From Candidatus Saccharimonadota bacterium (lineage in GTDB: Bacteria; Patescibacteriota; Saccharimonadia; Saccharimonadales; JAXHMH01): a DNA stretch of 64,000 nucleotides. A program made the translations under genes and the position numbers. The stretch lies in contig JAXHMH010000002.1 of NCBI GenBank assembly GCA_034521515.1, positions 152,379 to 216,378 on the forward strand, written 5' to 3'. This document shows positions 4,666 through 64,000 of the stretch, in pieces (position 1 is the first letter of the stretch; every line of letters starts with the position of its first letter). A model generated the notes under the pieces. It was not told the origin of the DNA, did no database searches, and worked only from the letters and a program-made list of their open reading frames with translations.

Positions 4666-4977
4666 TGCCTTTACGACGAGGCATGTTTTGTTTTGAAAAT
4701 CATTTTTGTGTTCCAGCCCGGGTTACGAATCCGCGCTTTTTGGATCACGCCTTCAGTATCACCGAGCATCGGTATTGATACAACCCCTTTTCTATAAAAA
4801 ATTTGCTCATTTTTTAAGGCAATGTTTTGCAATATTTTGCAGCAATTTTTGTTGTGTTAATTATTACAGTTTTTTATACGGCCTGTGTTCTTAACACCTA
4901 CAACCTATTGTATTAACTATTACATCCAAAATAATACTGTTGTGTAAATCACAAATTTCTAAAATTTGCCCCAAAAG

Positions 4978-13600: not shown

Positions 13601-16600
13601 CATCTGGGCTGGTCATAACGCGGTTGGTGCCGTCACTGGAAACTGCCACGTAGATGCCGTTTCCGTAGGTGACGGAATTCCAGAAATTTACTTCTGTGGA
13701 AGCGTGAGTAGTCCAGGTTTCACCACCTGATCCATATGTAAAGCCCGTTGCATCTACGTTTAGCCGTACTGAGGAGTTCCTACCACCAATGCCGACACTA
13801 CCTTTACCTTCTCCATACGAATTGACAAGTACATCCAGTTGGTGAAGTAACGGTGTAACAGATGTATCAGACGTGGATAAATTGGCTCGTACCTGTAGTT
13901 GACCGTCGGAGAGGTCAATACCATTTGTAATACCGGGTAATGAGCCGCCGCTGGTGAGGCTTTGCCAGCCACTGCCCCAGCTAACACCACCGTCAACCGA
14001 TACACGTGCCTCTAGCTCGAGCGTCGTATTAGCAGGTACAGTATCGACCCAGGTAACAGTGGAGCCACTAGCAATATCTACACCAGATAAGTCATAGGTC
14101 TCGGAAGTCCAACTACCAGTGCTCTCATATATTGGCTGGTTGGTATTGACCACCACAGCATCCAGCGCCATATCACTATCAAAACTGCTACCGGTCACGC
14201 CCTTAAACCGAATTTTTGTTGTACCCGCCGGAAAACTGACGTTAGCACTGTTCCAAACATCTGTACCTTGGTCTCCGATCACACTCCACTGCTCGCTCCA
14301 ACTGACACCATTATAACTTTCCAGCGACAATTCCATTGTCGTGTTGTCGTACATATTATAATTAAAATCAACGCTACCCCCGCCATGACTATCCATAGTG
14401 TACTCGATTAGAGCGGTTTGGGTCGGATAGTTGGAACCTGACGATTCAGTGTAGATGTACCAACTTCCATCGTAAGCTGCTGTCGGTCCAGTACCGGAAC
14501 TACCGGTGCCACCGCTATTACGGCTCCAGTCGAAATCATCGCCTGAAACATTAGTCCAGTTACCAAAGCCAGACTCAAAGCTTTCGCTATCCTCAATAGC
14601 TGGTGCTCCATAGGAGTTTACCGCCAGATTGACGCTACCGCCTACTGCATCCGTATTGGTTAGCGTACCTGTTTCCCACTCTGGCTGAGTAGTTTCAGTA
14701 ACATTAAAGTTGGAACTAGCGTTAACAGTTAAGTTGTTATTAAACAAGGATAGTTCTTGATCAACCGTGTCCTGGTTGAACAAATTAACACCTGAGGCGT
14801 TTTGGATTTGGAAGGCGGTTGGGGAGTTAGTGGTGTTTTGGATATTAACACCACCAGAGCTAGACCCTAGTACCAAGTTATTTTCTGTAGTGTCATAACT
14901 AATGACACCTTCGTTGCCTGCCGTACCTATATGTAGCGAGCCGGGACCAACAAACAGGTCTTGCCAGCGGGCAGTACTAGAGCCAAGACTGTAGGTGTTG
15001 TCAGTGCCGGGGAGTAGGTTGCCGTGTAGCACAGTGTCGCCCTGGGCGTTAACGGTTAGAGCATCGACAGTTGTGGTCGAGGTGTCCGTAGCCACAATAT
15101 TTGTGACTGTGGAAGTTGGGGAGTTGGCGGTGGATGCTGGGGAGCTGGTGCTGGAGGTTGGGGAGTTGGCGGTGGATGCTGGGGAGCTGGTGCTGGAGGT
15201 TGGGGAGTTGGCGGTGGAGGTTGGACTAGTGCATTCGCTTGTGCAGCCAGTAATATTGCCGGCTGCGTCGTATTTAGCCAAATAGGCATCAGCGGTACCG
15301 GCTCCATAACTATTGGTATATCCACCAGCTATGTAGCCGTCGTCATCAGTTTTAGCAACACTATAGAACCGGTCATTGGCGGTACCGCCAGCGGTACGGG
15401 ACCACTCTATACTGCCGCTATCGTCGTATTTAATAAGGTAGCCACTTTGGTTACCGGCACCGAAGCTATCGGTGTATCCAGCTGCCAGATAACTGCCGTC
15501 ATCGGCTTGAACGACGGAGTAGAGTGCATCAAAACCGGTGTCGCCGGCAGTGCGGGACCATTCTATGGTGCCGCTGCTGTCGTATTTGACTAGGTAAGCG
15601 TCATTACCACCAGCACCGAAGCTGTCAGTTCTTCCGGCTGCCAGGTAGCCGCCGTCGCTGGTTTGGATGACCTCAAGGAATCGGTCATTGCCGGTATCGC
15701 CGGCAGTGCGGGACCATTCTATGGTGCCGCTGCTGTCGTATTTGACTAGGTAGGCGTCATCGGCGCCGGCGCCGAAGCTCTCGGTTTCACCTGCTGCCAG
15801 GTAACCGCCATCATCAGTCTGAATAACGCTGAAGAATTGATCGTGCTGGGTGTCGCCAGCGGTACGTGACCACTCGATAGTACCGCTGCTGTCGTATTTG
15901 ACTAGGTAGGCGTTGTAGTTACTGGCGCCAAAGCTGATTGTGCTGCCGGCTGCCAGGTAGCCGCCGTCAGTAGTTTGTATAGCACTATAGAAGTAGTCCA
16001 AGCCTGTACCACCAGCGGTACGTGACCACTCGATAGCGCCGCTGTCATCGTATTTAATAATATAGGCGTCATTACTACCGGCACCAAAACTATCGGTTGA
16101 GCCTACAGCCAGGTAGCCGCCGTCGCTGGCTTGGATAACATGTTCAAAATAGTCTACTCCGGTATCACCAGCAGTACGGGACCACTCGATGCTACCGCTA
16201 TCGTCATATTTGACCATATAGCCGTCCAAACCGCCGGCACCGAAGCTATCAGTTCTTCCGGCTGCCAGGTAGCCGCCGTCGCTGGTTTGGATCACGCTGT
16301 GGAAACGATCATCTGTGGTATCGCCAGTAGCGAGCATAAAGGTTGTGGTCGCCACGGTTTGGTTGATACGTAAGGCATTTTGGTTTTGGTCGGTGTTTAT
16401 GATGGTAAGTTTGTCGGTTGGGGTGTTGGTGCCAATACCGATGCGTTGGTTGGTCGTATCGGCGGTGAGGATACTGGTGCCGGCGGCGTTTTGGATCTGG
16501 AAGGCGGTGGTGGAGTTGGAGGTGTTTTGGAATAGGGCTTGGCCGGTATTAGACAGGCTTAAGACTGTTTGGTTGTTGGCGAGGAGTTCTACGCCGTAAT

Positions 16601-45864: not shown

Positions 45865-47830
45865 TTTCATGTCGATGGCGGTGAGAGTCGGCGTCGTCAC
45901 TTGCCACGTAAGCATAGGTACCGTCGATGTGGACGCTGCGGGCGCCGTTCAGGTTGGTGGAGGTGTGGCTGCCCAGTTCGGTCAGATTGGCGGGGTCGGA
46001 GATGTCGATGGCGGTCAGGGAGCCGGCATTTCCACTGGCCACGTAGGCGTATGAGCCGTCGATGTGGACGCTGCGGGCGCCGTTCAGGTTGGCGGAGGTG
46101 TGGCTGTCCAGTTCCACCAGGTTATTCGGGTCGGAGATGTCGATGACGGTCAGGGAGTCGGCATACCAGCTGGCCACGTAGGCGTATGAGCCGTCGATGT
46201 GGACGCTGTAGGCGCCGTTCAGGTTGGCGGAGAGTGCGGCCGTCCAGCTCGACCAGGTTGATTCGGGTCGGAGACGCTCGATGACGGCCAGGGAGTCGGC
46301 ATAACAGCTTGCCACGTAGGCGTACGAGGCGGTCGACGTGGACGCTGCGGGCGCCGTCCAGGTTGGCGGAGGTGTGGCTGTCCAGTTCTACCAGGTTATT
46401 CGGGTCGGAGATGTCGATGGCGGTCAGGGAGTCGGCATCCCTGCTGGTCACGTAGGGCGTATGAGCCGTCGATGTGGACGCTGCGGGCGCCGTTCAGGTT
46501 GGCGGAGGTGTGGCTGTCCAGTTCCACCAGGTTACTCGGGTCGGAGATGTCGATGGCGGTCAGGGAGCCGGCAGAATAGCTTGCCACGTAGGCGTATGAG
46601 CCGTCGATGTGGACGCTGTTGGCACCGCCCAGGTTGGCGGAGGTGTGGCTGTCCAGTTCCACCAGGTTACTCGGGTCGGAGATGTCGATGGCGGTCAGGG
46701 AGGCGGCGTATTCGCTGGCCACGTAGGCGTACTGAGCCGTCGATGTGGACGCTGTTGGCGCGGTTCAGGTTGGCGGTGCTGAGGGAGTTTAGTTGTGCGA
46801 ATGAGTTCTGGCGGATCGAGCCGTTGACGTTCAATCGGTTCTGAAACGGTCACTTGACCCCGGGTATGTTTACTGGTGACTCGCGTGATGTCGATGGCGG
46901 TCAGGGAGTCGGCAGTTTCACTGGCCACGTAGGCGTATGAGCCGTCGATGTGGACGCTTTGGGCGTCTTCCAGGTTGGCGGAGGTGTGGCTGCCGAGTTC
47001 GGTCAGGTTACTCGGGTCGGAGATGTCGATGGCGGTCAGGGAGTCGGCGTATTCGCTGGCGACGTAGGCGGTGGTGCCGTCGATGGGACGCTGCGAGCAT
47101 AGTACAGGTTGGCGGAGGTGTGGCTGTCTAGTTCGACCAGGTTATTCGGGTCGGAGATGTCGATGACGGTCAGGGAGTCGGCATTCCTGCTGGCGACGTA
47201 GGCGTATGAGCCGTCGATATAGACGCTGTTAGCACCGTTCAGGTTGGTGGTGCTGATGCTATCCAGCTCTACCAGGTTGGACGGGTCGGAGATGTCGATG
47301 GCGGTCAGGGAGTCGGCATAAAAGCTTACCACGTAGGCGTATGAGCCGTCGATATAGACGCTGTTGGCGCCTTCCAGGTTGGCGGAAGTGTAGCTGTCCA
47401 GCTCTACCAGGTTGGACGGGTCGGAGATGTCGATGGTGGTCAGGGAGTCGGCGTATTCGCTGGCGACGTAGGCGGTGGTGCCGTCGATGTGGACGCTGTT
47501 GGCGCGGTTCAGGTTGGCGGAGGTGTGGCTGTCTGAGCTCGACCAGGTTGGATTCGGGTCGGAGATGTCGATGGCGGTCAGGGAGTCGGCATCCCTGCTC
47601 GCGACGTAGGCGGTATGAGCCGCTCGACTGTGGACGTCGGAGGCGGCGTCCAGGTTGGCGGAGGTGTGGCTGTCTAGCTCGACCAGGTTATTCGGGTCGG
47701 AGATGTCGATGGCGGTCAGGGAGTCGGCATCCCTGCTCGCCACGTAGGCGTATGAGCCGTCGATGTGGACGTCGGAGGCGGCGTCCAGGTTGGCGGAGGT
47801 GTGGCTGTCTAGTTCGGTCATATCGTACCC
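45865..47830 (-). repeat. About 14 tandem 135-bp (45-aa) LVIVD-type beta-propeller repeats (DSLTAIDISDPNNLVELDSHTSANLNGARSVHIDGSYAYVAS..A), several with frameshifts
   Basis: Head-to-tail units read on the plus strand (..cacgtaggcgtatgagccgtcgatgtggacgctg..ggtcggagatgtcgatggcggtcaggg..). Examples of lesions are cacgtagggcg (extra g near 46450) and gtcgatgggacgctg (1-nt loss near 47085). The array is visibly more G+C-rich than the neighbouring core genes (not computed). Confidence 0.8.
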
Positions 47831-48419: not shown

Positions 48420-50170
48420 GTAAAGCGTGTTAAGTGAAGTGTCTTGGACTGATGTCCAGGTTTCGCCGTCGGAGCTTGTCATAACGCGGTTGGTGCCACT
48501 ATATGCTACGGCTACAAACGTACCGTTGCCGTAGGTGACAGAGCGCCAGCTGTTAGCTTCGGCGGCGGCGTGAGCGGCCAGGTTTCGCCGTCGCTGGAAG
48601 TCATGACACGGTTGGTACCGTCATCAGCTACGGCTACAAACGTACCGTTGCCGTAGGTGACAGAGCGCCAGCTGTCAGCTTCGGCGGCGGCGTGAGCGGT
48701 CCAGGTTTCGCCGTCGGAGCTTGTCATAACGCGGTTGGTGCCACCTACACGCTACGGCTACAAACGTACCGTTGCCGTAGGTGACAGAGCGCCAGCTGTT
48801 AGCTTCGGCGGCGGCGTGAGCGGTCCAGGTTTCGCCGTCGCTGGAAGTCATGACACGGTTGGTACCGTCATCAGCTACGGCTACAAACGTACCGTTGCCG
48901 TAGGTGACAGAGCGCCAGCTGTTAGCTTCGGCGGCGGCGTGAGCGGTCCAGGTTTCGCCGTCGGAGCTTGTCATAACGCGGTTGGTGCCATCGTGAGCAA
49001 CCGCAACAAATGTACTATTACCATAAGCAACGTCACTCCAATCCGCAGGGATGCCTGTATATGGTACCCACGCGGTGCTTGTCATTTCGGCAGCCACATA
49101 CAATCTTGCGTCTGTGGTCTCAGCCGACCCTACTGATAGACTCATGGAGCTTGTGTTCGCGTTAAGTAGCGTACTGTTCCCCGCGGCATTCTGCACGGTG
49201 AAGCTACTCGTAGAGTCTGCTTTTACATTAACGCTGCCATTCAAGCTCGTTCTGCCCTGGACATTCAATGCTAAACCTTCTGAAATGTCACTCGTCATGA
49301 CGCGGTTGGTGCCACTGCTTGCAACAGCGACGAAGCGACCGTTGCCGTACGTAAATGAGTTCCACCAGTTGGCCTCAACAGCGGAATATGGAGTCCAGAG
49401 TAAGGCCGTCTGGGGAGGTCATAACGATACTTTTCGCGGCAATTGCTATAAATGTACCATTTCCATACGCCACATTATCCCACGCATCAAGTTTGCTATC
49501 TGGCGTATTCGCAAACCAGGTTACGCCGTCGGTACTCGTCATAACACGGTCGCTTGACTCACTGCTGCCACCATTCCCTGCTACTGCAACAAAGAGACCA
49601 TCGCCATAGGTGACCGACTGCCAATCATTGTCTACCACGGCAGTCTGAGTAACCCAGCTAACACCGTCAGAACTGGTCATAACGTGATTAGTGCCATCGC
49701 CTGTCACAGCCACATAAACACCATTGCCATAGGTAACTGAGCTCCAGTAGTTGGCTTCAGCGGCGGTACGGGTGGCCGACGTTTCGCCGTCTGGGAGGTC
49801 ATGACGTGGTTGGTGCCACTGCTTGCCACCGCCACAAACTGGCCGTTGCCATAGGTGACGGATTGCCAGCGCCAGCTTCGGCGGCGGTGACGGGGGTGGC
49901 CCAGGTTATGCCGTCTGGGGAGGTCATGACGCGGTGCTGGGGTGCCTTCCCAGGAAACTGCGACGAAGGTGCCGTTGCCGTAGGTGACAGAGCGCCAGCT
50001 GTTAGCTTCGGCGGCGGTACGGGCAGTCCATGTTTCGCCGTCTGGGGAGGTCATGACGCGGTTGGTGCCACTGCTTGCGACGGCCACGAAGATGCCGTTG
50101 CCATAGGTGACGGATTGCCAGCTGTTAGCTTCGGCGGCGGTACGGTGGTCCCCACGTTTCGCCACCGGTA
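48420..50170 (-). repeat. About 14 tandem 123-bp Asp-box-like blade repeats, the same family as 11800-13735, interrupted by frameshifts
   Basis: Fragments translate to ..WRSVTYGNGTFVAVADDGTNRVMTSSDGETWTAHAAAEANS.. across four or more different ORF pieces. Confidence 0.8.
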
Positions 50171-53100
50171 CCATACGTAAAGCTTGTTGCATCTACGTTT
50201 AATCGTGCTATCGGATTATTGCTGCCAATCCCAACACTCATATTCTGAGTATCGGCAGTAAACAGGCTGGAACCAGAAGTATTTTGAATCTGGAAAGCTT
50301 CTGTGGTATCAGTGCCGTTCTGAATCACTACACCGCCGGTTGTACTCCCTAATACAAGGTTGTTGGTCTGGTTATCAAAGTGCATGGTGCCGTAGTTAGT
50401 GCTGTCTGTGCCTACCTTGATGGTGGATGAGGCTTCGAGGACACCGGTCTTAACACTGCGGCTACCCAGGCCAGCTCGTGGGGTGTACTCAGTCGTGTCA
50501 TCGGCTATGCCGTTAAAGCTGACCCAGCCGTAGTTCTCGCTCCAGGCGTAGCCGGTGTATTCACCGGTGTCTGGGTCGTGAGTGACACCACCGTCGGTTG
50601 GGTCCAGGTTAATCCAACCAGTAGCGGTGTTCCAGGCAAAGCCGGATAGTTCACCGGTGGTTGGGTTACGGTTGACACCGTAGTCTGTTTCATCTGTGTT
50701 GGCGTAGGTGTGCTCACCGCCTCCTGTGTATGTACCAAAGCTAATCCAGCCGGTGGTTTCGCCCCAGGCCATGCCTTCTAGGTGGTCTGGGTAGACGCGG
50801 ACGTCATACATCGTGCCAGGCTCTAGGTTAATCCAGCCAGTTGCAGCACTCCAGACGTAGTGATGTTCGCCGTCTGAGGTTGGGGAGACGTCTACTTCCC
50901 CACCAGTGAACTTTGGTGCGTGAACGGTTGTGGTGACTCTGCACCTCTTCTTTGGTGGTGTCGTAGCCGAGGGTAGGCGTCGTTGCCATGACTGTGCCAA
51001 TGTTGCATGGAGTTTGGCACGGACGTAGACGTCTTGCCGACGGTTGGTGCTCGGAGCCAAGGTCGTAGGTGTCATCCGCGCTTGGTCGTAGGATTAGAGT
51101 TAATACCGGCGTTTACTGTCAGTGTGTTAGATGAGTTGGTGCCAAGTACCGTATTACCGTCTACGTCTACGTTGGTAGTAAAGCTGCCTCCGGCCGGTTA
51201 CATCAAGATCACCGCCGGCTAGAATAAGATCGTTGCTGGTGTCTAGGGTAAGTGTGCCGGTGCCTTGGAGGAGTGTGGAGTCAACCACGTTCTGAGCAGC
51301 GTCGAACATAGCTAGACGGTTGGCGGTGCCAAGAGCCGGTGACTAGGCTACCACCGTCACTCGAAGTCACCCGTAGTTATTTGTGTGCCGTTAACCCGGT
51401 AGACGCCGGTTGTGTTTACATCTCCGTCGACATCCAGGGTGTATTGTGGGCTGATGACTGGAGCCATGGTCGACTCTGAGGTGTGGGCGTTGGTGGTGCC
51501 GACTCGCATCGTAGACTGTGGGGCGTGCTGGTGCCGAACTGGTGGTGTACCAGGGGAGTACCAGCGTGAGGCGCCGTCAACTGGTGGTACCGGGCCGACT
51601 TAGCTGCATTGGTGGGGAGATGGAGCCGTTTGAGCGTCGTTGGAGCCGGATCGTTATAGCGGACAGCTGACTGCTGGTGCCATGATGGTAGCAGTCGGCA
51701 GCATCAGCCATCAGGCGAGCCTGCACGCCTGCGGCGTTTTGGATTTGGAAGGCGGTGGTGGAGTTGGAGGGTGTCGAGTAGGGCTTCGCCGGTATTCAAC
51801 GGCTTAAGACTGTATGGTCTGTGGCGAGGAGTTCTAGCCGTAATTGTCCTGGGCGCTGTGACTCGTTTGCACCGAATGTGTCACCACCTTGACTGATGTT
51901 GCCACTGGTATCTGTGACACAATCTAGCCAGGCACCGTTTTCGTAGCAACGGAAGGTGTTGGACGTGGTATCGTAGTACGTGGCGCCGTTGACGCCGGTT
52001 GGGAGAAGAGTCAGAACCAAGCACAAGGGCAGTGCCAAACAATCGATATACGATTATTAGTGGTGTTAGCGGTAAGAGATTGGTAGTACCTGCGGCGTTT
52101 TGGATTTGGAAGGCAGTTGTAGAGTCTGTTTGGTTCTGGAATAGAGCTTGGCCGGCGACATCTAAGCCAGCATCTATAGCAACGGTTGAACCTGATTGGC
52201 TTATCAATGAGTCTATAACGGTGTTGTTATCATCAAACACTGGGATAGTGCCGGCAGTACCTGTGCCTACTGCCCAAGAAACATGAATACTGCCATCGCC
52301 CTCATTTCCTACCTCCACACCCATACCGGCGGGTACAAGCGATGACCCGCCGCCACCGCCGCCGCCACTATAAGTGCTTCCACCAGAGTCACCGGCACCG
52401 CCACCGTAATAACCGCCGCCACCGCCGCCACCGGCTGTATAACTAGTACATGTTGGGCAAGCATCGCCACCTACACCAAGTACACCATCTTCGCCATCGC
52501 CGTTGCCGGCACCACCTTCAGTTTGCGTACCTCCCTCGCCAGGATAACCACCATTCTGGCCAGCTTGTCCATTATGGTCACCGCCATGTCCGCCGTATTT
52601 ATTACCGTACCAGCCACTACCGCCGCCGCCGCCACCAGCAACCACGATACGATCGGTTAAGCCCGTACCTCCGCGACGTATATCGGTTGCACCACCACCG
52701 CCACCGCCAGTACGAAAATCGCTGTAACTATCTCCTCCACCGTTCCAGCCACCTGTAGGCGTACCTCCCGCGCCTCCTACGTAAAAATACAACGTCTCTC
52801 CTGGCGTAACATCCATGGTGCCAGATACAATTGCACCATCGCCGCCTCCAGTACCACTTTCAGCTGATACACCCCCTTCAGCACCTCGTAATTCAACAAA
52901 AATCTCGGTAACGCCAGCTGGTACGGTAAACTGTTGCATAGCCGACACGGACTCAAAAGTTTGACTACCAGCCTCTCCCGGAGTTAATACAAACGTACCT
53001 GTCGTATTGGGTAGTAAGTATGCCTGATCTGCAGTCAATGTAGCCGATTGTATGGTCGCACCGTTATTACTGAACCCGTCACCCAGCGTCAACAGGCCTT

Positions 53101-54629
53101 GCGTAACTGTGCCACTACTAGCAATTCTACCTAGTGTCAACCGTGCACCTGTTTCATTAAACGACGCGTTGACATTGCCGTCGCTATCTTGCAGCTGTAA
53201 TAAATCGGCGGTTTGTCCTGATGTGCCCTGCACAAGCAGGCCAGTATTGGTGCTTCCGCCTGTGGCAAGCGCGGTCTGAGCCGAGCTGTCAGCAGTGGAA
53301 AGCGTGTTTACACTGAGCGTGTTTGCCGGAGCAACGTTATTTATGCCTACCTGCCCGGTGTTTGAGACGGTCATACGGATGGTGTCGTTCGTCTTGATAT
53401 TCACATCACCGTCATTAACGGTACCGAGTACCATGGCAACGCTGCCGCCAAGATCATTGCCCCCTTGCAATATATCGCCGTAGCCTGCGGTGCCCCCTAT
53501 ACAATTGCCGGCAAACGTACAGACATTGTCACCGCTTTGCTGCAAGGTGCCGGTAAAGTTGGCCGTGGTGGCGTCATACAGTGCCACGTTCGAGCTTAGT
53601 CTGGCATCGGCCAGGGTGCCGGTGGTGATGTTTGTCGCGTGAAGGTCGGTCAGGCCGGAGCCGTCGCCCTCAAAGCTGCCGGCAATGATGGTGCCGGTGA
53701 GGTTGATGTGGCCGGTTTGGGGAGTGCCTGGAGTGGAGGCTTGTAGTAAAGCAAGCGTCCCACTGGCATCAGGTAGCAGAATTGATGGGTCGTTGGTGAT
53801 GGAGCTGAAGTTGAGGCTGCCGCGGTTGGTGCCGTCGTCTTGGTTGAGCTGGCCGGCACTTAGGGCGTGGGGTATGGCGGTTAGTTTGATTCTGGGGGTC
53901 ATCTCACCATCCCAGGTGGGAGAGCCAGTACCGCCGATGTTCATACTGAGCCATAGGTCTTGGTCCCAGTTGATGTCTGGCAGGCTGGTGACGGAACCCA
54001 GGTTGACGCTGAAGTAGCCGTTTCTAACCGTGACTTGGTCAGTGCTGGTGCGGGTTTCGCGCCAGGCACAGCTGCCGGAACAGCTGCCTTGGGCGCCACC
54101 AGTGTTGGTGGCATGATCGTGTAGTTTGAATTCTAGGTTGTAGGTGCCGTCAGGGACTATGTTGCCGGCACTGTTGTACAGACGGGCTTGGAAGTTGAGG
54201 TATTCACTAGTGGCGGCAGAGGTGGATTGCAGGGGTGGAATTAGGATTGACCAAACAAACAAAAACAGCACAAACAATAGCCCTGAGAGCCAGAGCTTGG
54301 CTGTGTTGAAAGGTAGGCGGTGTGACCGCTGTTTTTGGAACATTTGTTTTTGTTTTTTGGTTTGTTTTGGTTTTTTGTTTAAAAACCGTGACTTCATTAT
54401 CCTTCACTTAACAGATAGTATCAAGGGTGAATGTACACATAATTAACTCAATTATAAATCAATTATTTTTATCAAATTAATATAATTATATGTTGTTATT
54501 AGTACTACTACATCGACCTTTCTTACCTGTTTTTGTATAAAATATACTGTACGTATAATTGTTTTTATATATAAAATATTGATGTATTTATAACTACTAC
54601 ACTATAATTTCATAGAATTATTGTAATGG

Positions 54630-55081: not shown

Positions 55082-55131
55082 TCAGTAGATACGATCATTT
55101 TCCTTCCGGGAAAATAGCACGGTCCGCAAAG

Positions 55132-55162
55132 AAAAAAGACCTCCTGTTCGGAGGTCTTTTTT
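55132..55162. terminator. Bidirectional terminator-like hairpin (A6-GACCTCC-tgttc-GGAGGTC-T6)
   Basis: Stems at 55138-55144 and 55150-55156, flanked by A and T runs. Confidence 0.65.
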
Positions 55163-55257
55163 ATAATTTGGCGCCCCAAGGTCAAGCCTAAAGTTTTAGG
55201 CTTGACCGGCTATTTTCGATTATTTTCTTCTTGGGAAAATAGCACGGCGCATATGCC

Positions 55258-55291
55258 TTTAAAAGAGAAAAGCCATCCTATTCGGATGGCT
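55258..55291 (-). terminator. Rho-independent terminator immediately after 5S rRNA
   Basis: The minus strand reads AAGCCATCC-gaata-GGATGGCTT followed by TTCTCTTTT. Confidence 0.8.
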
Positions 55292-55301
55292 TATTCTATA
55301 A

Positions 55302-55413
55302 TTTGGCGCCGTGCTATTTTCCCAGGGGTGAACCCCAAGTATTGTAACCGCTGCGAGGCTTAACTGCTGTGTTCGGCATGGGAACAGGTGTCTCCCTCGC
55401 GCTATGGGCACCA
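55302..55413 (-). rRNA. rrf: 5S ribosomal RNA (about 112 nt)
   Basis: The minus strand reads TTGGTGCCCATAGCGCGAGGGAGACACCTGTTCCCATGCCGAACACAGCAGTTAAGCC..GGGAAAATAGCACGGCGCCAA. It has the conserved CCCATGCCGAAC..GTTAAGC core, and helix I pairs the two ends. Confidence 0.93.
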
Positions 55414-55428
55414 ACGACGACAGTCGTT

Positions 55429-55490
55429 GAGTTAAAAGTGAAAAGTAACAAGTTAAAAGTCTTTATACCTTAAAACTTTAACACTTTGTA
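55429..55490 (-). repeat. AU-rich hairpin element, family 2, in the 23S-5S spacer
   Basis: agttaaaagtgaaaagtaacaagttaaaagtctttataccttaaaactttaac.. is homologous by eye to the 23S insertion at 59797-59868 (shared aagttaaaag..ctttata..ttaaaacttta). Confidence 0.6.
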
Positions 55491-55654
55491 CTCGCGCCGA
55501 CAGGCGCTTGTTGATGTCCATTTATATCATTTGTGATAATACGGCAATTTAGCCGTATATCATTCGTGATGTATCGCACGTCTGATGTGAAATGTTAAAG
55601 CCCTTCGACAATGCTCAGGGCAGGCAAACCCAGCTAAAATTCTTGAGACTCCGT

Positions 55655-55794
55655 AATCTGATTACAGACTACTTCGCTCAGGAATTTCTACTGGACAGGC
55701 ATGGTGTGTGATACACACCAACAACTAGTCAATCCCCGCACCAAAGTCTTGATGCTACACAATCTGGTTACAGACTGCTTCGCTACAGGATTTT
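55655..55794 (-). repeat. Two ~33-nt direct repeats in the 23S-5S spacer
   Basis: aatctgattacagactacttcgctcaggaattt (55655-55687) and aatctggttacagactgcttcgctacaggatttt (55761-55794). Confidence 0.7.
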
Positions 55795-55964
55795 GTGCGG
55801 GATAAATGCACTTTCCTCCATAACGATCAGGCTTATGCAGATAAACTGCGACCTGATTGTTATGGTCGTAAAAAGTCAATGGGACTATTAGTACTTCTCA
55901 CCTCAATGCGTCACCGCACTTTCAGTTAAAGCCTATCAAACTGATCGTCTTTCAGTGTCCTCTA

Positions 55965-56131
55965 GGAGCCTGCCTGCAAAACTTACTCTGGCTAAAACCA
56001 GTATATTTTGGGCTGCAAAATATAAAATGTTCGTCAACGTACCTTATAGGTATGCATCCTCGCATTTTAACTTTTTCGCTCCAAAATCTACCAAGTTTTA
56101 CCTTGATAAGTAAGCCTTACAGGCAGGCTCC
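55965..56131 (-). other. 167-nt hairpin insertion in 23S at the helix-98-equivalent site, closed by 12-bp perfect inverted repeats
   Basis: GGAGCCTGCCTG (55965-55976) and CAGGCAGGCTCC (56120-56131). The flanks align by eye with E. coli ..TCCCTGAC..|..GAAGACGACGACGTTGATAGGC. Confidence 0.7.
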
Positions 56132-56245
56132 AGGGAAATCTAATCTTGGGTGAGGCTTCGCGCTTAATATGCTTTCAGCGCTTATCCTTTCCGCACATAG
56201 CTACCCAACCATGCCATTGGTATGACAATTGGTACACCAGCGGTG

Positions 56246-56277
<32 letters not shown>

Positions 56278-56330
56278 CTCCCCTCAAATTTCCTATCGTC
56301 CACAGCGGATATAAACCGAACTGTCTCACG

Positions 56331-57133
56331 CGTGTACATCTTAAGGTGTTCATGTCTTAAGACTTATCCTCCATTACTGAAGGCACGGACTATATCTTCA
56401 CCCTTCTTTATGTATTAAAGTTAGGGGCTGACGTATTATAGGTCACTGGTTGTGAGTCCTATCTCTCTGTCTGGTCTAGTGACAGATCAGTCTCTACGGG
56501 GACAAGTAAGCCACGCTCCTGCAAAAAAGTGATGACTTGTGCGTATCCGTTAGTGCGTTTCTTTGAATAGTTAAATGTAGCGGTCTTATCGACCAGCTCA
56601 CTTAACCGCACCAACCTTCTGGCGGTCATTTTTCGTTGCTCGGGATGTTGTTTGATTAATCTCAAGACATCTCTAGCGAGCACTTTTTTGAGTCGAAGAA
56701 AGGGATACAGAAGCAACAATACATGTTCTACTTCTCTTAAGCCGACTATGGTGTATTCGCTCATCCCGTCAGGGCGTCGGCGAACATATCCGTAGCCTAG
56801 CTGCTCCTTCAGCCAAAGGAGAAAATCTTGATGGTTTGTTTTCTGGTAGAAAACAACACTAACTCTAATCTGAAAACCCAATCGATAATCCTTGCGGCTT
56901 ATCAATTGCGCCATAATTGAGCCATCTCCATCTAAGAATCCAGCTATGTAGGCCTTTTCTTCATCTTGCATGGTCATTACTGTCTTCCCTCGGTATTGCC
57001 CTCTGGATCGTTCGTTTATCCAGGTGGGGTTTCACCGATATTAGTCAGATTTAGTGTTTTTTTCGCTATAAAGCGAAGATGCGATGTACATCAACACATT
57101 ACCACTTTTCAGTGGTAGAACGCAATGTAATTT
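56331..57133 (-). mobile_element. Group I intron (about 803 nt) in 23S inserted after the U2593 equivalent (the I-CreI-type site)
   Basis: The conserved exon GGGTTCAGAACGT ends at 57134 and resumes as CGTGAGACAGTTCGG at 56330. The 5' exon ends in U and the insert ends in G, as expected for group I. The insert contains a LAGLIDADG ORF. Confidence 0.8.
56459..56977 (-). CDS. Single-motif LAGLIDADG homing endonuclease (I-CreI-like), 172 aa, intron-encoded
   Basis: KAYIAGFLDGDGSIMAQL.., size and context. This is the only convincing ORF within the rRNA genes. Confidence 0.88.
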   Translation of the reverse strand: MTMQDEEKAYIAGFLDGDGSIMAQLISRKDYRLGFQIRVSVVFYQKTNHQDFLLWLKEQLGYGYVRRRPDGMSEYTIVGLREVEHVLLLLYPFLRLKKVLARDVLRLIKQHPEQRKMTARRLVRLSELVDKTATFNYSKKRTNGYAQVITFLQERGLLVPVETDLSLDQTER

Positions 57134-57141
57134 ACGTTCTG

Positions 57142-57188
<47 letters not shown>

Positions 57189-57202
57189 AAGATGCTCCAC
57201 CT

Positions 57203-57237
<35 letters not shown>

Positions 57238-57269
57238 AGCGCCGTCTATGTGAACTATTGGGCGCTATA

Positions 57270-57301
<32 letters not shown>

Positions 57302-57519
57302 GTGCGTCGTCGATCCCACGTTCATGTACAAATGTACGTACGACGGGTCACTAGCTCCCACTTTCGTGTCTGTTTGGCTCGTAGGCCTCACAGTCAAGCT
57401 GGCTTATGCGCTTGCACTATCAGTTCGATTTCCATCCGAACTTAGCCAACCTTTGAACGCCTCCGCTACTCTTTAGGAGGCAACCGCCCCAGTTAAACTA
57501 CCCACCAGACACTGTTCCC

Positions 57520-57650
57520 GAACCGGAAATTACCAACAATTTCCGGTTCAGTTAACGGCTGACAGTATACAGACAACAGTCTTTAAACTGTTTACTGTTA
57601 ACCATCTACTGTTAACCTGCGGAAAATTGTTAACAATTTTCGGCTCAGGT
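57520..57650 (-). other. ~130-nt insertion in 23S domain V built from hairpins
   Basis: AACCGGAAATTaccaacAATTTCCGGTT and CGGAAAATTGTTAACAATTTTCGG hairpins lie between conserved GAAATACCACCC and GGAACAGTGTCTGGTGGGTAGTTT. Confidence 0.6.
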
Positions 57651-57769
57651 GAGTACAAGATCGTAACAAGGGTGGTATTTCACCGGTGGCTCCACCTACG
57701 CTAGCGCGTAGGCTTCAAAGCCTCCCACCTATCCTACACATGTTACGACCCGGCACAATGTCAAGCTGT

Positions 57770-57801
<32 letters not shown>

Positions 57802-58771
57802 GCGGACAGACGGCATCTTTACCGTCAATGCACTTTCACCGAGCTCTTCGTCGAGACAGTGCCCAAATCATTACTCCATTCGTGCGGGTCAGAACTTACC
57901 TGACAAGGAATTTCGCTACCTTAGGACGGTTATAGTTACCGCCGCCGTTCACTGGGGCTTCAGTTCGCACCGTGAAGCGCTCCCCTTAACCTTCCAGCAC
58001 CGGGCAGGAGTCAGCCCCTATACATCCACTTTCGTGTTAGCAGAGACCTGTGTTTTTGGTAAACAGTTGCTTGGGCTCCTTAGCTGCGGCCCCGTCACAC
58101 TATCTACCACGATAGTGCCCTTTTGTAGGGGTCAGCTTCCTTCTGATTTGTTTGTCTCGAGTATTACTCGTTTATACAGGTCCTTGCAAGAAGTTAAAAA
58201 CTTGCATGAACTACTGTTTTGATCTCGTTTTCAAAAGAAAACTGGCTTTACATGTCACACGTGATAAACACTGTGACGGGGCAGACCTTATCCCGAAGTT
58301 ACGGTCGCTGTATTGCCGAGTTCCTTGACGAAGATTCACTCGTACGCCTTGGTCTTCTCGACCTGAGCACCTGTGTCGGTTTGCGGTACGGATAGCCATG
58401 CACATAAGTTTGGAAGCTTTTCTGGTCAGCACTCTCACAAGAATCAGCCTGTTAAGGCCTCTCATTCGTGGTTGTTACGCCACTTAGACGGGTATAACCA
58501 TGAACCCGCTCCTGCTAACATGCCGCGCACTCCAAACAATACAAGACTAGTACGGGAATATTAACCCGTTGTCCATCGCCTACGCTACGCGCCTCGGCTT
58601 AGGACCGACTAACCCTGGGACGATTACCGTGGCCCAGGAAACCTTGCTCTTTCGGCGGGCAGGATTCTCACCTGCCTTATGGTTACTCATTCCAACATTC
58701 TCACTTGATACCGCTCCACCAGACCTTACGATCTAACTTCAGCGCAATATCAACGCTCCTCTACCGCTCGC

Positions 58772-58901
58772 GCGATGCGCAAGAAACTCCAGAAACCAAA
58801 AACCAAAATTCAGAGAAAGACCAAAAATCAAAGATTTGAAAATTGAAGTTGAGACTTATCTGAAATTTGAAGTTTGAGGTTTGAAATTTCTTGCGCATCG
58901 C
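58772..58901 (-). other. 130-nt IVS-like hairpin in 23S (helix-45-like site) closed by 15-bp perfect inverted repeats
   Basis: GCGATGCGCAAGAAA (58772-58786) and TTTCTTGCGCATCGC (58887-58901). The interior consists of CAAA/TTTG-rich complementary arms. Confidence 0.7.
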
Positions 58902-59518
58902 ACAAGCCCATATCTTCGGTGCTATGCTTTAGCCCCGTTACATTTTCCGCGCGAGATCTCTTGACGAGTGAGCTGTTACGCACTCTTTAAATGAATGGCT
59001 GCTTCTAAGCCAACATCCTCGTTGTTTAAGAAATCTCACCTCGTTTCCCACTTAGCATAGACTTGGGGACCTTAGATGATGGTCTGGGCTGTTTCCCTTT
59101 CGAGCGCCGAGCTTAGCCCCGGCGTTCTGACTGCTGTAGTTCCACTGATGGTATTCGTAGTTTGTCAAGGGTGGGTACGATCACTCGCCCCAGTCCGAAA
59201 CAGAGCTCTACCCCCATCAGCTACCGTACAACGCTAGCCCTAAAGCTATTTCGAGGAGAACCAGCTATCTCCAGGTTCGATTGGCATTTCACCGCTAACC
59301 ACAGGTCATCCGAGCATGTTGCAATATGCGACGGTTCGGTCCTCCACGTAGTTTTACCCACGCTTCAACCTGCCCATGGTTAGGTCACCTGGTTTCGGGT
59401 CTACTCCGCATAACTAAATCGGCCTATTCAGCCTCGCTTTCACTACGCCTCCGTCAAATGACTTAGGCTTGCTATGCAGAGTAACTCGTTGGATCGTTCT
59501 ACAAAAAGCACGCCGTCA

Positions 59519-59602
59519 CCCTGCAGTAGACTTTCGATCAGTTTTGCTACGCAAAACCGTATCCATTCGCAAAGCGAATGGCATCGAAAGCTCACTGCAG
59601 GG
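59519..59602 (-). other. ~84-nt extension of the helix-25-equivalent hairpin of 23S
   Basis: CCCTGCAGT (59519-59527) and ACTGCAGGG (59594-59602) close an extra hairpin where E. coli has a short helix (GGGAGCACGCTTAGGCGTGTGACTGCG). Confidence 0.55.
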
Positions 59603-59665
59603 CTCCGACTCCTTGTACGCACACAATTTCAGGTTCTATTTCACTCCCCTTCCGGGGTTCTTTTA

Positions 59666-59696
<31 letters not shown>

Positions 59697-59789
59697 ATCG
59701 TAAGATATATTTAGCCTTGGGACGTGGTCGTCCCGGATTCAGTCAGGGTTTCACGTGTCCCGACCTACTCGACATACGGCTCGCGCTTT

Positions 59790-59878
59790 GCACGAGCAAG
59801 TTAAAAGCCGAAAGTTAAAAGTTAAAAGCCCTAAGACTTTATACTTTAAAACTTTATATACTTTTCACTCGCTTGTGC
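59790..59878 (-). repeat. AU-rich hairpin insertion, family 2, in 23S domain I
   Basis: gcacgagcaagttaaaagccgaaagttaaaagttaaaagccctaagactttatactttaaaactttatatacttttcactcgcttgtgc. It is homologous to the spacer element 55429-55490 and lies just 5' of the conserved ..GAGTAGGTCGGGACACGTG. Confidence 0.65.
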
Positions 59879-60134
59879 TCCGCACAAGCCCTACAAATAT
59901 AAGGTTAGCGAGACTTGGCATACCGGGCTTTCACCGTCTCTGGCGGAACTTTCCAATTCCTTCTGCTCGCCTCGCTAATTTCTGACCTTATGCAGACTAA
60001 TGGTAGCGTCTGCAGCCTTATGCAAAGACTGAATAAATTCAGTTCCTGCAAAAGGTTGTTTGTAGTGTCACAACCCCCATTATGCATTAGCCTACCAGCC
60101 TTACCGGCTGCATCTCGCTTCGCTCGAGCTAATG

Positions 60135-60209
60135 CAATAGATGATAGTTGATAGATGATAGTTGATAACAAATGTCATTAACTATTAACTATTTTCCTAT
60201 TAACTATTG
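60135..60209 (-). repeat. AU-rich hairpin insertion, family 1, in 23S domain I
   Basis: caatagatgatagttgatagatgatagttgataacaaatgtcattaactattaactattttcctattaactattg. The ends CAATAG../..CTATTG are complementary. It is homologous to the 16S insertion at 63829-63904. Confidence 0.7.
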
Positions 60210-61141
60210 CTCTAGCTTGTCGAACAAAGTGAGACACAGCTGGAGCATAAAAGGTTTGGGCTCTTCCGCGTTCGCTCGCCACTACTAACGGAATCGTTGT
60301 TTACTTTCTCTTCCTCGAGGTACTAAGATGTTTCAGTTCCCCCGCTTACCGCCATATAGCCTATGAATTCAACTATAGGTGACTAGACATGACTCTAGCC
60401 GGGTTTCCCCATTCGGAAATCTTCGGTTCAAAGCTTAGTCAGCAGCTCCCCGAAGCTTATCGCAGCTCCTCGCGTCCTTCATCGGTATCTTACGTCAAGG
60501 CATCCTTTGTGTGCGCTTGTGTAACTTTTTACGATTCCACAACTTGTAACACTTTAGCCTACCGTCCAGCAAAGCTGGCCGCACTGCTAAAGCTCTTGAG
60601 GTATTGCTTTGTCAGAAACTGTGCTACTCCTTCACCGTATTAATATACGGCACAGTCCGTTGCTTGTTTCTTCCGTGCACTGCACTCAAGTACGAAGTTA
60701 TGGGTCATTAAGTGCAATCCTTCTTCGCTTCCAAAGGAAGCTACGAAGGACCGTTCATAGCCTAAAAGGCGACGAACGGTTGACTAGTTGTTGGTAATTA
60801 CCAACTACTCACAACTTCGCATCGCGCTGACTGCTCGCCAGCAGAGCTGCCGATCTGTCATCACTTTTGGCGCATCACTGCGTCAGTTACTCCGATACTC
60901 GCTCACCGTACTATTAGTACGACTCGCTCCGTTTCTCATAACTTCCTTGTGCTGCATCCAAATGCAATAGTTGTGTTGCCGTTTGCCTTATTTCTCATTT
61001 CTTTACATCAGATTGTTAAGATACAAACTCAAGACATCCCCACTGTAAGAATATATCTTGCTGCGTATAGAACTTGAGTTTACGTTTCTGGCTTGGCGGT
61101 TTAGACGTCAAACAAATGACCTAAACTCAAGCAGCCAGAAC

Positions 61142-61291: not shown

Positions 61292-61368
61292 GGGGCAATA
61301 GCTCAGTTGGCTAGAGCACCTGCTTTGCAAGCAGGGGGTCCGGGGTTCGAGTCCCCGTTGCTCCACCA
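61292..61368 (+). tRNA. tRNA-Ala (anticodon UGC), CCA encoded
   Basis: GGGGCAATAGCTCAGTTGGCTAGAGCACCTGCTTTGCAAGCAGGGGGTCCGGGGTTCGAGTCCCCGTTGCTCCACCA. It has the G3:U70 pair, anticodon loop tTTGCAa and GTTCGAGTC T-loop. Confidence 0.95.
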
Positions 61369-61456: not shown

Positions 61457-61533
61457 GGGGCTATAGCTCAGTTGGTTAGAGCGCGTCACTGATAATGACG
61501 AGGTCGATGGTTCGAGTCCACCTAGCCCCACCA
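61457..61533 (+). tRNA. tRNA-Ile (anticodon GAU), CCA encoded
   Basis: GGGGCTATAGCTCAGTTGGTTAGAGCGCGTCACTGATAATGACGAGGTCGATGGTTCGAGTCCACCTAGCCCCACCA. Confidence 0.95.
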
Positions 61534-61562: not shown

Positions 61563-61593
61563 AGCGCCTAATGACGAGGTCGATGGTTCGAGT
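61563..61593 (+). other. Truncated duplicate of the tRNA-Ile 3' half (pseudo-tRNA fragment)
   Basis: agcgccTAATGACGAGGTCGATGGTTCGAGTaactc. 25 nt (61569-61593) are identical to tRNA-Ile positions from the 3' anticodon stem to the T-loop. The 3' T-stem and acceptor are missing. Confidence 0.8.
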
Positions 61594-61647: not shown

Positions 61648-61992
61648 CTAGATAACAGTTACTACAACTATAAAAATCACTGCTATATGCAGTGCTTGAT
61701 CAACATGAATACCGTATAGCCCCTCTTCCTTGCCTAATTTTTTGTGCAGCCACTTTGATGCTTTGCCAAAATCAATTAACCAGTGAGCCGACCCAATGAT
61801 AGCTGCTGCCAAAATACTGCCTGATAATAGTCCCGCAATTATCGCGTGAATAAACGCATGAGAGGTCAAAGCATGTATGCCCATAGGGTCAAGGAATATG
61901 AGTTGCTTTTTGGCTGCCATATGCTGACTCTGTAGACCAAAGTCCGCTAGGTAGTGCCCTGCGATCAACGTAAGTAGTAGTACAAAATCCAT
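61648..61992 (-). CDS. Small integral membrane protein (114 aa), DUF3307-like
   Basis: MDFVLLLTLIAGHYLADFGLQSQ.. (H.LADF.LQ motif recalled for DUF3307), with 3-4 hydrophobic helices. Confidence 0.6.
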   Translation of the reverse strand: MDFVLLLTLIAGHYLADFGLQSQHMAAKKQLIFLDPMGIHALTSHAFIHAIIAGLLSGSILAAAIIGSAHWLIDFGKASKWLHKKLGKEEGLYGIHVDQALHIAVIFIVVVTVI

Positions 61993-62032: not shown

Positions 62033-62072
62033 TAAAAAGAGCCCATCTCGCAATGTTGGGCTCTTTTCTTTT
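62033..62072. terminator. Bidirectional terminator between the 16S trailer and the membrane-protein gene
   Basis: AGAGCCCA-tctcgcaatgt-TGGGCTCT (62038-62064), with AAAAA on the left and TTTCTTTT on the right. Confidence 0.65.
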
Positions 62073-62262
62073 CGCTATACAGCGAACGGCTTCTCGTCTC
62101 ATTTTACTGAGAATTTGGTCTCTTCCTCGGGAAGAGCAGCCGGAGCGTCGGATTTATTCCGCGCGCCACGCGATGAGAAACCCTGAAAGGGTGTCTCATA
62201 CCCGTTAAAAACCTAAGTAGTGCAAATCGAACGTCATATTCGGGTACAGAACTGCTATCTTG

Positions 62263-62361: not shown

Positions 62362-62520
62362 AAACGTACATTGCCAGTACTGTGTTTACAATGTACCAAG
62401 ATCGACCTAGCTAAAGCCTATCGGCTAGTCGTTAGTCGCCGGTCGCTAGTAGCTAGAAAAACTAGTGACTAGAGACTTTTGACTAGAGACTAACCAAGCT
62501 TCGCTTGGTTTTCTCCCTAG

Positions 62521-64000
<1,480 letters not shown>

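Follow-up and report, generated by a model that had tools for sequence, protein, structure and literature searches.

The ribosomal RNA (rRNA) operon in a 64-kb stretch of a Saccharibacteria genome (contig JAXHMH010000002.1; the whole stretch of 64,000 nucleotides is called the window here) carries AU-rich hairpins in which a 7-nt tandem array on one arm faces a roughly complementary array on the other. Seven hairpins are built in this way: two copies of a family designated F1, one each in the 23S and 16S rRNA genes; two copies of a second family, F2, in the 23S gene and in the 23S-5S spacer; the extensions of 23S helices H45 and H79; and a hairpin that follows the 16S gene. Their architecture is periodic, they are placed at existing hairpins, their occupancy is lineage-specific, the members of each pair resemble one another, and the hallmarks of transposons are lacking. 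The reading to which we lean, with reservations, is that they are helix extensions, akin to intervening sequences (IVSs) or expansion segments, produced by compensatory slippage of heptads together with occasional ectopic copying within the operon. The hairpins lie at the following positions of the window.

60135 to 60209, minus strand: F1-23S, an AU-rich heptad hairpin with 5' arm (AAUAGUU)n and 3' arm (AUCAWCU)n.
63829 to 63904, minus strand: F1-16S, distal in a 100-nt insertion (63815-63914) that stands in place of the loop of 16S helix h9.
59797 to 59868, minus strand: F2-23S, a heptad hairpin with arms (AAAGUNU)n and (CUUUUAA)n.
55429 to 55490, minus strand: F2-spacer, in the 23S-5S spacer, its end 14 nt upstream of the 5S 5' end.
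58766 to 58907, minus strand: H45 extension, with a GC-rich, near-perfect basal stem and distal heptad arrays AAAYYUC / UGRUUUU.
57520 to 57650, minus strand: H79 extension, with a central heptad hairpin of GUUAACA-type units (-51.8 kcal/mol).
62433 to 62492, minus strand: post-16S heptad hairpin, in the spacer just 3' of the 16S gene, with an ACTAGAG-type unit (written for the plus strand).

With Tandem Repeats Finder (TRF), arrays of period 7 were detected in F1, F2, and H45, on each of the two arms, and also in the post-16S hairpin (4.6 copies). Lag 7 was the best self-match lag in all seven hairpins, and 0/1000 shuffles reached the observed values, which were 0.63 for F1-23S and 0.54 for F1-16S (0/1000 shuffles each). 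No lag-7 signal was found in three further 23S inserts, at H25, H98, and H63. One arm of F1-23S was resolved by TRF as a 14-nt unit present in 2.2 copies at 100% identity. No arrays of at least three heptads were found elsewhere in the 64 kb. The units vary between sites and between genomes, and no motif is common to all seven hairpins.

The two arms of each hairpin carry different units, whose imperfect pairing is the same from rung to rung. Predicted structures are ladder-like, with rungs of 4-6 bp and 2x2 or 3x3 internal loops between them, amounting to 2-3 mismatches per 7 nt in the AU-rich distal parts; unit numbers are equal on opposing arms (4 and 4 in F1), and the pairing is periodic. 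Each whole insertion folds as one long hairpin, GC-richer at the base and AU-rich toward its distal end. The inserts are thus extensions of existing hairpins and were not placed in arbitrary sequence; the hosts are 16S h9, an H15-like hairpin in 23S domain I, H45, H79, and the pre-5S hairpin. An earlier sequence-only reading of this DNA had described the elements as hairpins, and all of them except F2-spacer folded significantly better than shuffles. The H45 extension, with 52-nt arms, reached -64.3 kcal/mol (z = -10.6).

The loop of the H15-like hairpin, which follows GCCCAAAC (model positions 274-296), holds a 163-nt insertion (60083-60245), and F1-23S makes up the distal part of that insertion. 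This placement was obtained by Rfam alignment of a longer slice, an isolated piece of 23S domain I with its excess of inserted sequence having given no match. The Rfam small-subunit (SSU) alignment showed that the F1-16S insertion takes the place of the 3-nt h9 loop and that its GC-rich flanks, GUGCGUCUCG and CGAGGCGCAU, are the native h9 stem. The sequence CAATAGATGATA has exactly two copies in the window, at 60135 and 63829, where shuffles expect 0.25, and an internal copy with one mismatch at 63850; TATTAACTATTG and its one-mismatch variants occur in both F1 elements and at one stray site, 4911. The sequence-only reading had paired the two elements on such shared ends and interiors. Its coordinates and strings were correct, and local alignment gave a score of 75, compared with 16.5 +/- 3.1 for dinucleotide shuffles (z = 19). 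In a MAFFT alignment, identity was near-continuous from CAAUAG to CUAUUGC, and the closing sequence GCAAUAG...CUAUUGC, which provides perfect inverted termini of 6-7 bp, was identical in both copies. Each copy has four units per arm, with a regular unit followed by an irregular second unit, in which UU is swapped for purines, and then by regular units again; the 3' arms align over 34 nt without gaps and with 4 mismatches. In the rRNA sense, F1-23S folds at -17.1 kcal/mol (z = -4.3) and F1-16S at -11.7 kcal/mol (z = -2.5). Promoter-like hexamers were present in F1 at background rate (12 found, 11.3 expected).

The F2 elements occupy a different pair of sites. F2-23S makes up the distal portion of an extra helix (59775-59895; E. 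coli ~360-368) found only in the clade formed by the window and three related operons, L002, L004, and L005, and F2-spacer stands at the position of the pre-5S hairpin, where every relative has a short hairpin. Here too, the resemblance that had been proposed held, with coordinates and strings correct: the local alignment score was 56, compared with 18.5 +/- 3.5 for dinucleotide shuffles (z = 10.7), and AAGTTAAAAG was confined to the two F2 elements in the 64 kb. The MAFFT-aligned block takes in a 5' flank, GCGAGU, that is common to both copies. The unit order is AAAGUAUAU, AAAGUUUU, AAAGUAU, AAAGUC in F2-23S and AAAGUGUU, AAAGUUUU, AAGGUAU, AAAGAC in F2-spacer. In the rRNA sense, F2-23S folds at -17.0 kcal/mol (z = -2.9) and F2-spacer at -10.7 kcal/mol with a z of only -0.8, so the latter is a degenerate hairpin.

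The proposal that homologous elements sit in unrelated helices of different genes was thus supported for both families (h9 and 23S domain I for F1; the extra helix and the pre-5S spacer for F2), with similarity well above that of dinucleotide shuffles. Paralogy within the window pairs is supported because the order of irregular units is common to both copies. Judged from these alignments, a single ancestral sequence most likely gave rise to each pair, whose members now stand at non-homologous sites, and we consider it probable that each pair is a true copy.

Eight related operons were available for comparison. L002, L004, and L005 were reached through the gene for a DUF3307 protein that lies between 16S and 23S, a route that returned the three closest homologues only, farther homologues not being located beside rRNA; L050-L054 were found through a spurious open reading frame (ORF) that metagenome gene callers predict on the strand opposite the 23S. 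Core 23S identity to the window was 86-90%, and in a neighbor-joining tree the grouping (window,(L002,L004)) excluded the other operons. Only the window and L004 had large inserts at E. coli ~368, H25, H45, and H79, as well as a 23S intron, among the eight operons, and L002, the sister of L004 (94% 23S core identity), has none of them. The extra 116 nt that holds F1-23S was seen only in the window and was absent from 7/7 relatives covering the region; the H15-like hairpin is already enlarged in all Saccharibacteria examined, with a native short hairpin in every relative. At the sites common to the window and L004, both sequences and units are unrelated, and the H79 and H45 slices have identical lengths (143 and 151 nt, respectively) despite this. 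The L004 16S gene carries an unrelated 140-nt h9 insert and, in addition, a heptad hairpin in h6. Period-7 arrays were limited to the rRNA operons of the window and L004, none being found in the other operons, the L004 flanks, or ~100 kb of other Saccharibacteria DNA. The elements had been set apart from site-specific expansions, and across relatives their occupancy was indeed sporadic, not fixed at the same helices, with sequences that differ between genomes.

The heptad hairpins of L004 have perfect arrays. Its H79 hairpin (4687-4775) contains 4.3 and 4.4 copies, at 100% identity, of the units UAGUAAU and UUUCUAC; the complementarity between these is no more than partial, so the arms expanded as two separate arrays, in a recent and coordinated expansion. 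Its pre-5S hairpin (2955-3045) contains GGAAUAU x4, and its H45 and 16S h6 (14129-14238) hairpins both have CAUUUNN-type units. Similarity between sites in this operon was weaker than in the window pairs (H25-H79, z = 5.8; H45-16S h6, z = 3.8), with a null that is too lenient for periodic sequence. An F1-like hairpin occurs in L004 at a third site, H25. It aligns with both window F1 copies (scores 57-60) and has AAAUAGUUAAUAG and AUCUAUUAUCU in common with them; the F1 and F1-like hairpins together support a 22-pair consensus structure (a ladder) with 2 compensatory pairs.

Hairpins of the same units were also found far from Saccharibacteria. A metagenome scan with a pattern fitting all three F1-type copies returned 28 loci, ~20 of them clear hairpins of the same units and none inside an rRNA gene. 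Their positions are short gaps that follow a stop codon or separate convergent genes, in hosts that do not belong to the candidate phyla radiation (CPR): L039 carries thrA-thrB-thrC, L049 carries BamA, and L032 is assigned to Chitinophagaceae by a protein 87% identical to a Chitinophagaceae protein in a protein search. No taxonomic link emerged when proteins of the metagenome loci were compared with the Saccharibacteria loci by tblastn. The multi-hairpin contigs (L039, L032, and L031), like L004, mostly have a different unit in each hairpin. A shared unit is therefore not proof of copying, since hairpins of the F1 unit arise between genes in unrelated bacteria, and the equation of sequence similarity with homology in the sequence-only reading was overstated on its own, even though the pairs are real. 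Heptamer-array hairpins outside the CPR were noted at L022, L025, L029, L031, L032, L034, L035, L039, L044, L046, and L049, often with several hairpins per contig and differing units; those of L039 lie between thrA, thrB, and thrC. They may form a class of terminator-position hairpins that is widespread, as yet undescribed, and akin to heptamer simple sequence repeats.

As we envisage the growth of the rRNA hairpins, replication slippage would lengthen one arm of a hairpin by units of 7 nt (14 nt in the most recent step of F1-23S), a roughly complementary 7-nt unit on the opposite arm would be amplified separately, and selection for a continuous helix would keep the arms equal in length ("compensatory slippage"). 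This would leave the native, GC-richer stem at the base of a long hairpin whose distal part is an AU-rich ladder. Rarely, ectopic gene conversion, or template switching between hairpin-forming stretches, would transfer a copy of the distal part of one hairpin to a different hairpin slot in the operon. Such copying could have given birth to the F1 pair (h9 and the H15-like hairpin) and the F2 pair (the extra helix and the pre-5S hairpin), and each copy would then have gone on evolving by slippage and compensatory substitution. We infer slippage as the mechanism of growth and DNA-level copying as the source of the pairs. The perfect arrays of F1-23S and of L004 H79 look like fresh slippage captured as it happened. 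A pure template switch, by which one arm would be synthesized from the other, is argued against by the mismatches that recur in every rung. Template-switch hairpins as described by Monttinen and Loytynoja (PMC8794818) could supply the copying step between hairpins, but their arms would be expected to be perfectly complementary, unlike the ladders described here, which have the same mismatches in every rung and agree better with a separate array on each arm.

Several observations weigh against slippage combined with copying. Slippage alone leaves the confinement to the rRNA operon and the restriction to two of eight lineages unexplained. AU-rich heptads with one G form a small set, roughly 64 by our estimate, and F1-23S scores 69 against a Chitinophagaceae intergenic hairpin, nearly as much as the 75 against F1-16S. 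Outside the AU-rich tip, the flanks show only marginal similarity (P = 0.05, 0.014, and 0.05), and the idea that a whole hairpin of ~130 nt, including its GC-rich base, was the copied unit was dropped on that account. The relatives all have 23S identities of <=90%, too distant for tracing the direction or timing of copying. Both F1 copies fold better as the antisense strand (F1-23S, -24.2 vs -17.1 kcal/mol; F1-16S, -13.7 vs -11.7 kcal/mol), which is unexpected for a helix shaped by selection on rRNA. The post-16S hairpin shares this asymmetry and all other hairpins do not. The asymmetry was also considered as a sign that F1 had been inserted "backwards." That idea was abandoned; the asymmetry is not a property of the F1 family because the F1-like hairpin of L004 folds better in the sense strand.

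The sequence-only reading had suggested a small mobile or copy-paste hairpin, either MITE-like (miniature inverted-repeat transposable element) or recombinational. Copy-paste by recombination is a reasonable description because the pairs are real and the sites are variably occupied with different sequences; the MITE-like version fared worse. It would make F1 and F2 small, non-autonomous transposable or insertable elements that target hairpin loops, which would accommodate homologous sequences at unrelated sites of 16S, 23S, and spacer, the perfect 6-7 bp inverted termini of both F1 copies, sporadic occupancy in relatives, and the F1-like hairpin at another site in L004. MITEs and the Correia, RUP, ERIC, and REP repeats are similarly small and AT-rich, with inverted ends and the potential to form an RNA hairpin. 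Terminal inverted repeats are trivial for any hairpin, however, and the target-site duplications, the tens to hundreds of dispersed copies, and the partner transposase that mark MITEs were not seen in the 64 kb. The flanks are GCGAGA and CGCUCUCGC for F1-16S and CUAGAG and CAUUAG for F1-23S. Being complementary to one another (inverted), they simply continue the stem; they contain no direct repeat, and a target-site duplication is absent. Clean pairs of filled and empty sites were not found among the relatives, which instead have native hairpins of varied length and sequence at the same positions. A search for the further copies expected of a mobile element came back empty in the window: both copies of each family are in the rRNA operon, and the other 55 kb contains no more. 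The pattern CAATAGATGATA N35-65 TTAACTATTG had 8 matches in 185,579 species genomes, a collection that evidently does not include the source genome, and all were chance occurrences in coding DNA of unrelated taxa. In viral contigs, the F1 pattern was not found and an F2 20-mer gave 3 chance matches in AT-rich phage genes. The body of the element, a tandem array with a recent, perfect 14-nt duplication, is also atypical for MITEs. Transposition is disfavored as the source of the hairpins, and we regard a MITE-like element as very unlikely.

A more serious competitor, although still one we hold to be unlikely, is independent convergent growth, in which each hairpin grew from its own seed out of a small or mutationally favored set of units and nothing moved. 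The hairpins of AAUAGUU/AUCAWCU in the L004 genome, where H25 makes a third rRNA site, and in ~20 intergenic regions of bacteria outside the CPR, with scores up to 69 compared with 75, speak for it, as does the rule of in-place growth with distinct units at the other multi-hairpin loci (L039, L032, L031, and L004). The metagenome matches were, however, preselected for the F1 unit from a very large collection and are not an unbiased null, and the units of unselected hairpins are diverse. The window pairs share not only a unit but also the order of variant units, the position of the irregular unit, the unit number, and the closing sequences, to which F2 adds its GCGAGU flank; two such coincidences among ~36 hairpin pairs in one operon are unlikely (<1e-2 by our rough estimate). 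Selection could alternatively maintain or reach the similarity if the heptads were a signal in RNA, namely, binding or processing sites at several places in pre-rRNA for one protein, such as an RNase III-type enzyme, an assembly factor, or a ribosomal-protein extension. Confinement of the arrays to the transcribed rRNA operon, spacers included, the regular geometry of rungs (4-6 bp) and internal loops (2x2 or 3x3), and the equal slice lengths of H79 and H45 in the window and L004 with unrelated sequences would fit such a signal. But units that differ by site and genome with no motif common to the seven hairpins, the 6/8 related operons without any arrays, the poor folding of F2-spacer, and the better antisense folding of the F1 copies all make it improbable. 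It would likewise be surprising, to about the same degree, if a dedicated process seeded and spread heptad hairpins at hairpin tips, in rRNA operons of some Saccharibacteria and at gene ends of Bacteroidota; such a process might be tied to replication, repair, an RNA-templated activity, or an unrecognized hairpin-targeting element. If true, it would explain the recurrence of AAUAGUU/AUCAWCU in unrelated phyla and, across two genomes, at three rRNA sites, the stepwise co-expansion of the arms, and the confinement to transcribed rRNA hairpins.

Not all inserts in the 23S gene are heptad hairpins. Three others are listed here.

59519 to 59602, minus strand: H25 insertion, a GC-rich branched hairpin (-49.6 kcal/mol).
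55965 to 56131, minus strand: H98 insertion, present only in the window genome among the eight operons.
58072 to 58283, minus strand: H63 expansion, variable in form in all Saccharibacteria operons examined.

The H25 insertion has no 7-nt periodicity (lag-7 self-match 0.26, not significant), and the H98 insertion has 23-nt arms that are 87% complementary. The H25, H45, H79, and H98 inserts were placed by MAFFT alignment with E. coli. Hairpin inserts had been listed for the 23S gene with inverted repeats of 12 bp and 15 bp; arms and folding energies show that these inserts are real, with arms longer than those values. A recurring motif beside three inserts, GCUUGUGCG, was not used further, the repeat of an 11-mer within 9 kb being near chance.

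Rfam identified a complete rRNA operon on the minus strand of the window, and one rRNA operon appears to be present in the source genome.

62521 to 64000, minus strand: 16S rRNA, cut by the window end, with the 5' ~100 nt beyond the window (Rfam SSU alignment).
About 55862 to 60531, minus strand: 23S rRNA, including an 803-nt intron (56331-57133).
55301 to 55415, minus strand: 5S rRNA, followed by a terminator-like hairpin at 55292..55270.

Aligned to E. coli rRNA (L001), the 23S gene is ~980 nt longer than that of E. coli with the 803-nt intron excluded, and the extra sequence is located in domain I (E. coli ~275-290 and ~360-368), H25, H45, H63, H79, and H98; the 16S gene has ~100 extra nt near position 185-195. 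The intron follows E. coli 23S position 2593 and contains a single-domain LAGLIDADG ORF (56459-56977, minus strand); it gave no match above the gathering score with the Rfam group I models. L004 has a 792-nt insertion with a LAGLIDADG ORF (3643-4116) at the identical site. A 21-nt repeat (90% identity; 57057-57077 and 62066-62086), holding a small hairpin TTCGCTATA(A/C)AGCGAA, is found at the intron 5' end in the 23S gene and in the spacer between 16S and the DUF3307 gene.

The DUF3307 gene, which encodes a membrane protein (ORF 61648-61992), lies inside the rRNA operon, and a homologue (P0009) adjoins terminase and portal genes in a phage-like metagenome contig. Genes for tRNA-Ala(tgc) and tRNA-Ile(gat) are also located between 16S and 23S but on the plus strand (61292-61368 and 61457-61533), and a 25-nt exact copy of the tRNA-Ile 3' half occurs at 61569-61593, 36 nt downstream of the tRNA-Ile gene. 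The strand arrangement of DUF3307, tRNA, and rRNA genes differs among the window, L002, and L004, which suggests local inversions, and 16S and 23S may be transcribed separately. A 16-nt perfect complement surrounding the 23S gene, at 60780-60795 (~250 nt upstream) and 55717-55732 (~130 nt downstream), is probably the 23S processing stem. The 23S-5S spacer contains a 51-nt direct repeat with 76% identity (55637-55687 and 55743-55793). Downstream of the terminator, the 5S 3' end has a 19-nt perfect inverted copy (55232-55250 vs 55306-55324) and a second copy of 15 nt at 55108-55122; both lie within two tandem units of ~130 nt (region 55092-55324), each with a terminator-like hairpin. Outside the operon, long tandem repeats of 123, 135, and 156 nt occur in very large ORFs (12213-13677, 15386-16327, 45869-47816, and 48454-50163) that probably encode repetitive surface proteins, and an 838-aa ORF (51881-54397) is Gly-rich.

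The inserts share with IVSs the replacement of a variable-helix loop (100 nt in h9 and 163 nt in the H15-like hairpin, by covariance models), sporadic occurrence among close relatives, and the occupation of H25 and H45. They differ in having related sequences at different helices, genes, and a spacer, and in their tandem heptads; to our knowledge, classical IVS families are site-specific and do not consist of tandem heptads. IVSs form long stems with a near-perfect double-stranded base. For H45 (~30 bp) and h9 (~27 pairs), folding predicts long basal stems that would resemble RNase III substrates, so that IVS-type excision would be slightly favored over retention at these two sites; the mismatched AU-rich ladders would not be suited to RNase III. 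Bacterial IVSs are known from 23S H25, H45, and H9 and from a few sites in 16S, and they are excised by RNase III without religation (PMC4990558, PMC2801512, PMC11270868). Tsurumaki et al. reported that 64/66 rRNA inserts of Saccharibacteria were short and lacked introns and homing-endonuclease genes, and for CPR bacteria generally, they suggested RNase III-type IVSs from short inserts at two 23S sites matching those of IVSs (PMC11270868).

A further parallel is with the cryptically simple expansion segments of eukaryotic rRNA, which co-evolve with one another. There, too, short motifs on one strand of a variable helix face complementary motifs on the other, growth occurs at peripheral helices, and motifs recur across segments and between the small and large subunits; Hancock and Dover reportedly described motifs common to different expansion segments in 1988. 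In expansion-segment (ES) numbering, the sites used here presumably correspond to es3S (h9), ES5L (H15), ES7L (H25), ES15L (H45), ES27L (H63), ES31L (H79), and ES39L (H98). Unlike the eukaryotic segments, those of the window belong to a bacterium (CPR) and consist of strict, AU-rich heptanucleotide units instead of GC-rich simple sequence; with an apparently single rRNA operon, unequal crossing-over among rDNA copies cannot homogenize the segments. Compensatory slippage is described as the accepted growth mode of eukaryotic expansion segments in a paper that cites Hancock and Dover 1990 for it (PMC1888808).

Heptanucleotide repeats are familiar in bacteria as well. They are given as the most abundant bacterial long simple sequence repeats (LSSRs), with polymerase slippage proposed as their origin, in papers of which one cites Mrazek 2007 (PMC4679880, PMC4692102). 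The short tandemly repeated repetitive (STRR) sequences of cyanobacteria and the TAACTGA repeats of Beggiatoaceae, Cyanobacteria, and Bacteroidetes (PMC4679880, PMC4692102) resemble the rRNA arrays in their 7-nt unit and 3-8 copies, and LSSRs in general resemble them in having slippage as the supposed generator and a patchy phylogenetic distribution. The intergenic hairpins of Bacteroidota probably belong to this LSSR phenomenon. LSSRs are mostly direct, intergenic, and genome-wide, whereas the arrays described here form complementary pairs and, in the Saccharibacteria examined, occur in the rRNA operon only.

Short, ORF-less rRNA inserts in Saccharibacteria (PMC11270868), IVSs (PMC4990558, PMC2801512), and heptamer repeats (PMC4679880) were thus already known. 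In the literature, of which coverage was incomplete, no bacterial rRNA extensions made of paired heptad arrays and no related inserts common to 16S, 23S, and spacer were found to have been described. The inserts lengthen the 16S V2 region and 23S domain I and thereby affect primers, chimera filters, and length filters applied to Saccharibacteria. If the proposed origin is confirmed, it would refine the nature of many short, unexplained rRNA inserts in the CPR. The origin of expansion segments is usually inferred from old and eroded eukaryotic sequences, and here fresh, even perfect, arrays are present in a bacterium. An ordinary mechanism is most likely for the heptad hairpins, and they offer a natural model for the growth of expansion segments; if confirmed, they would provide a tractable one, including the "molecular co-evolution" of segments without multi-copy rDNA.

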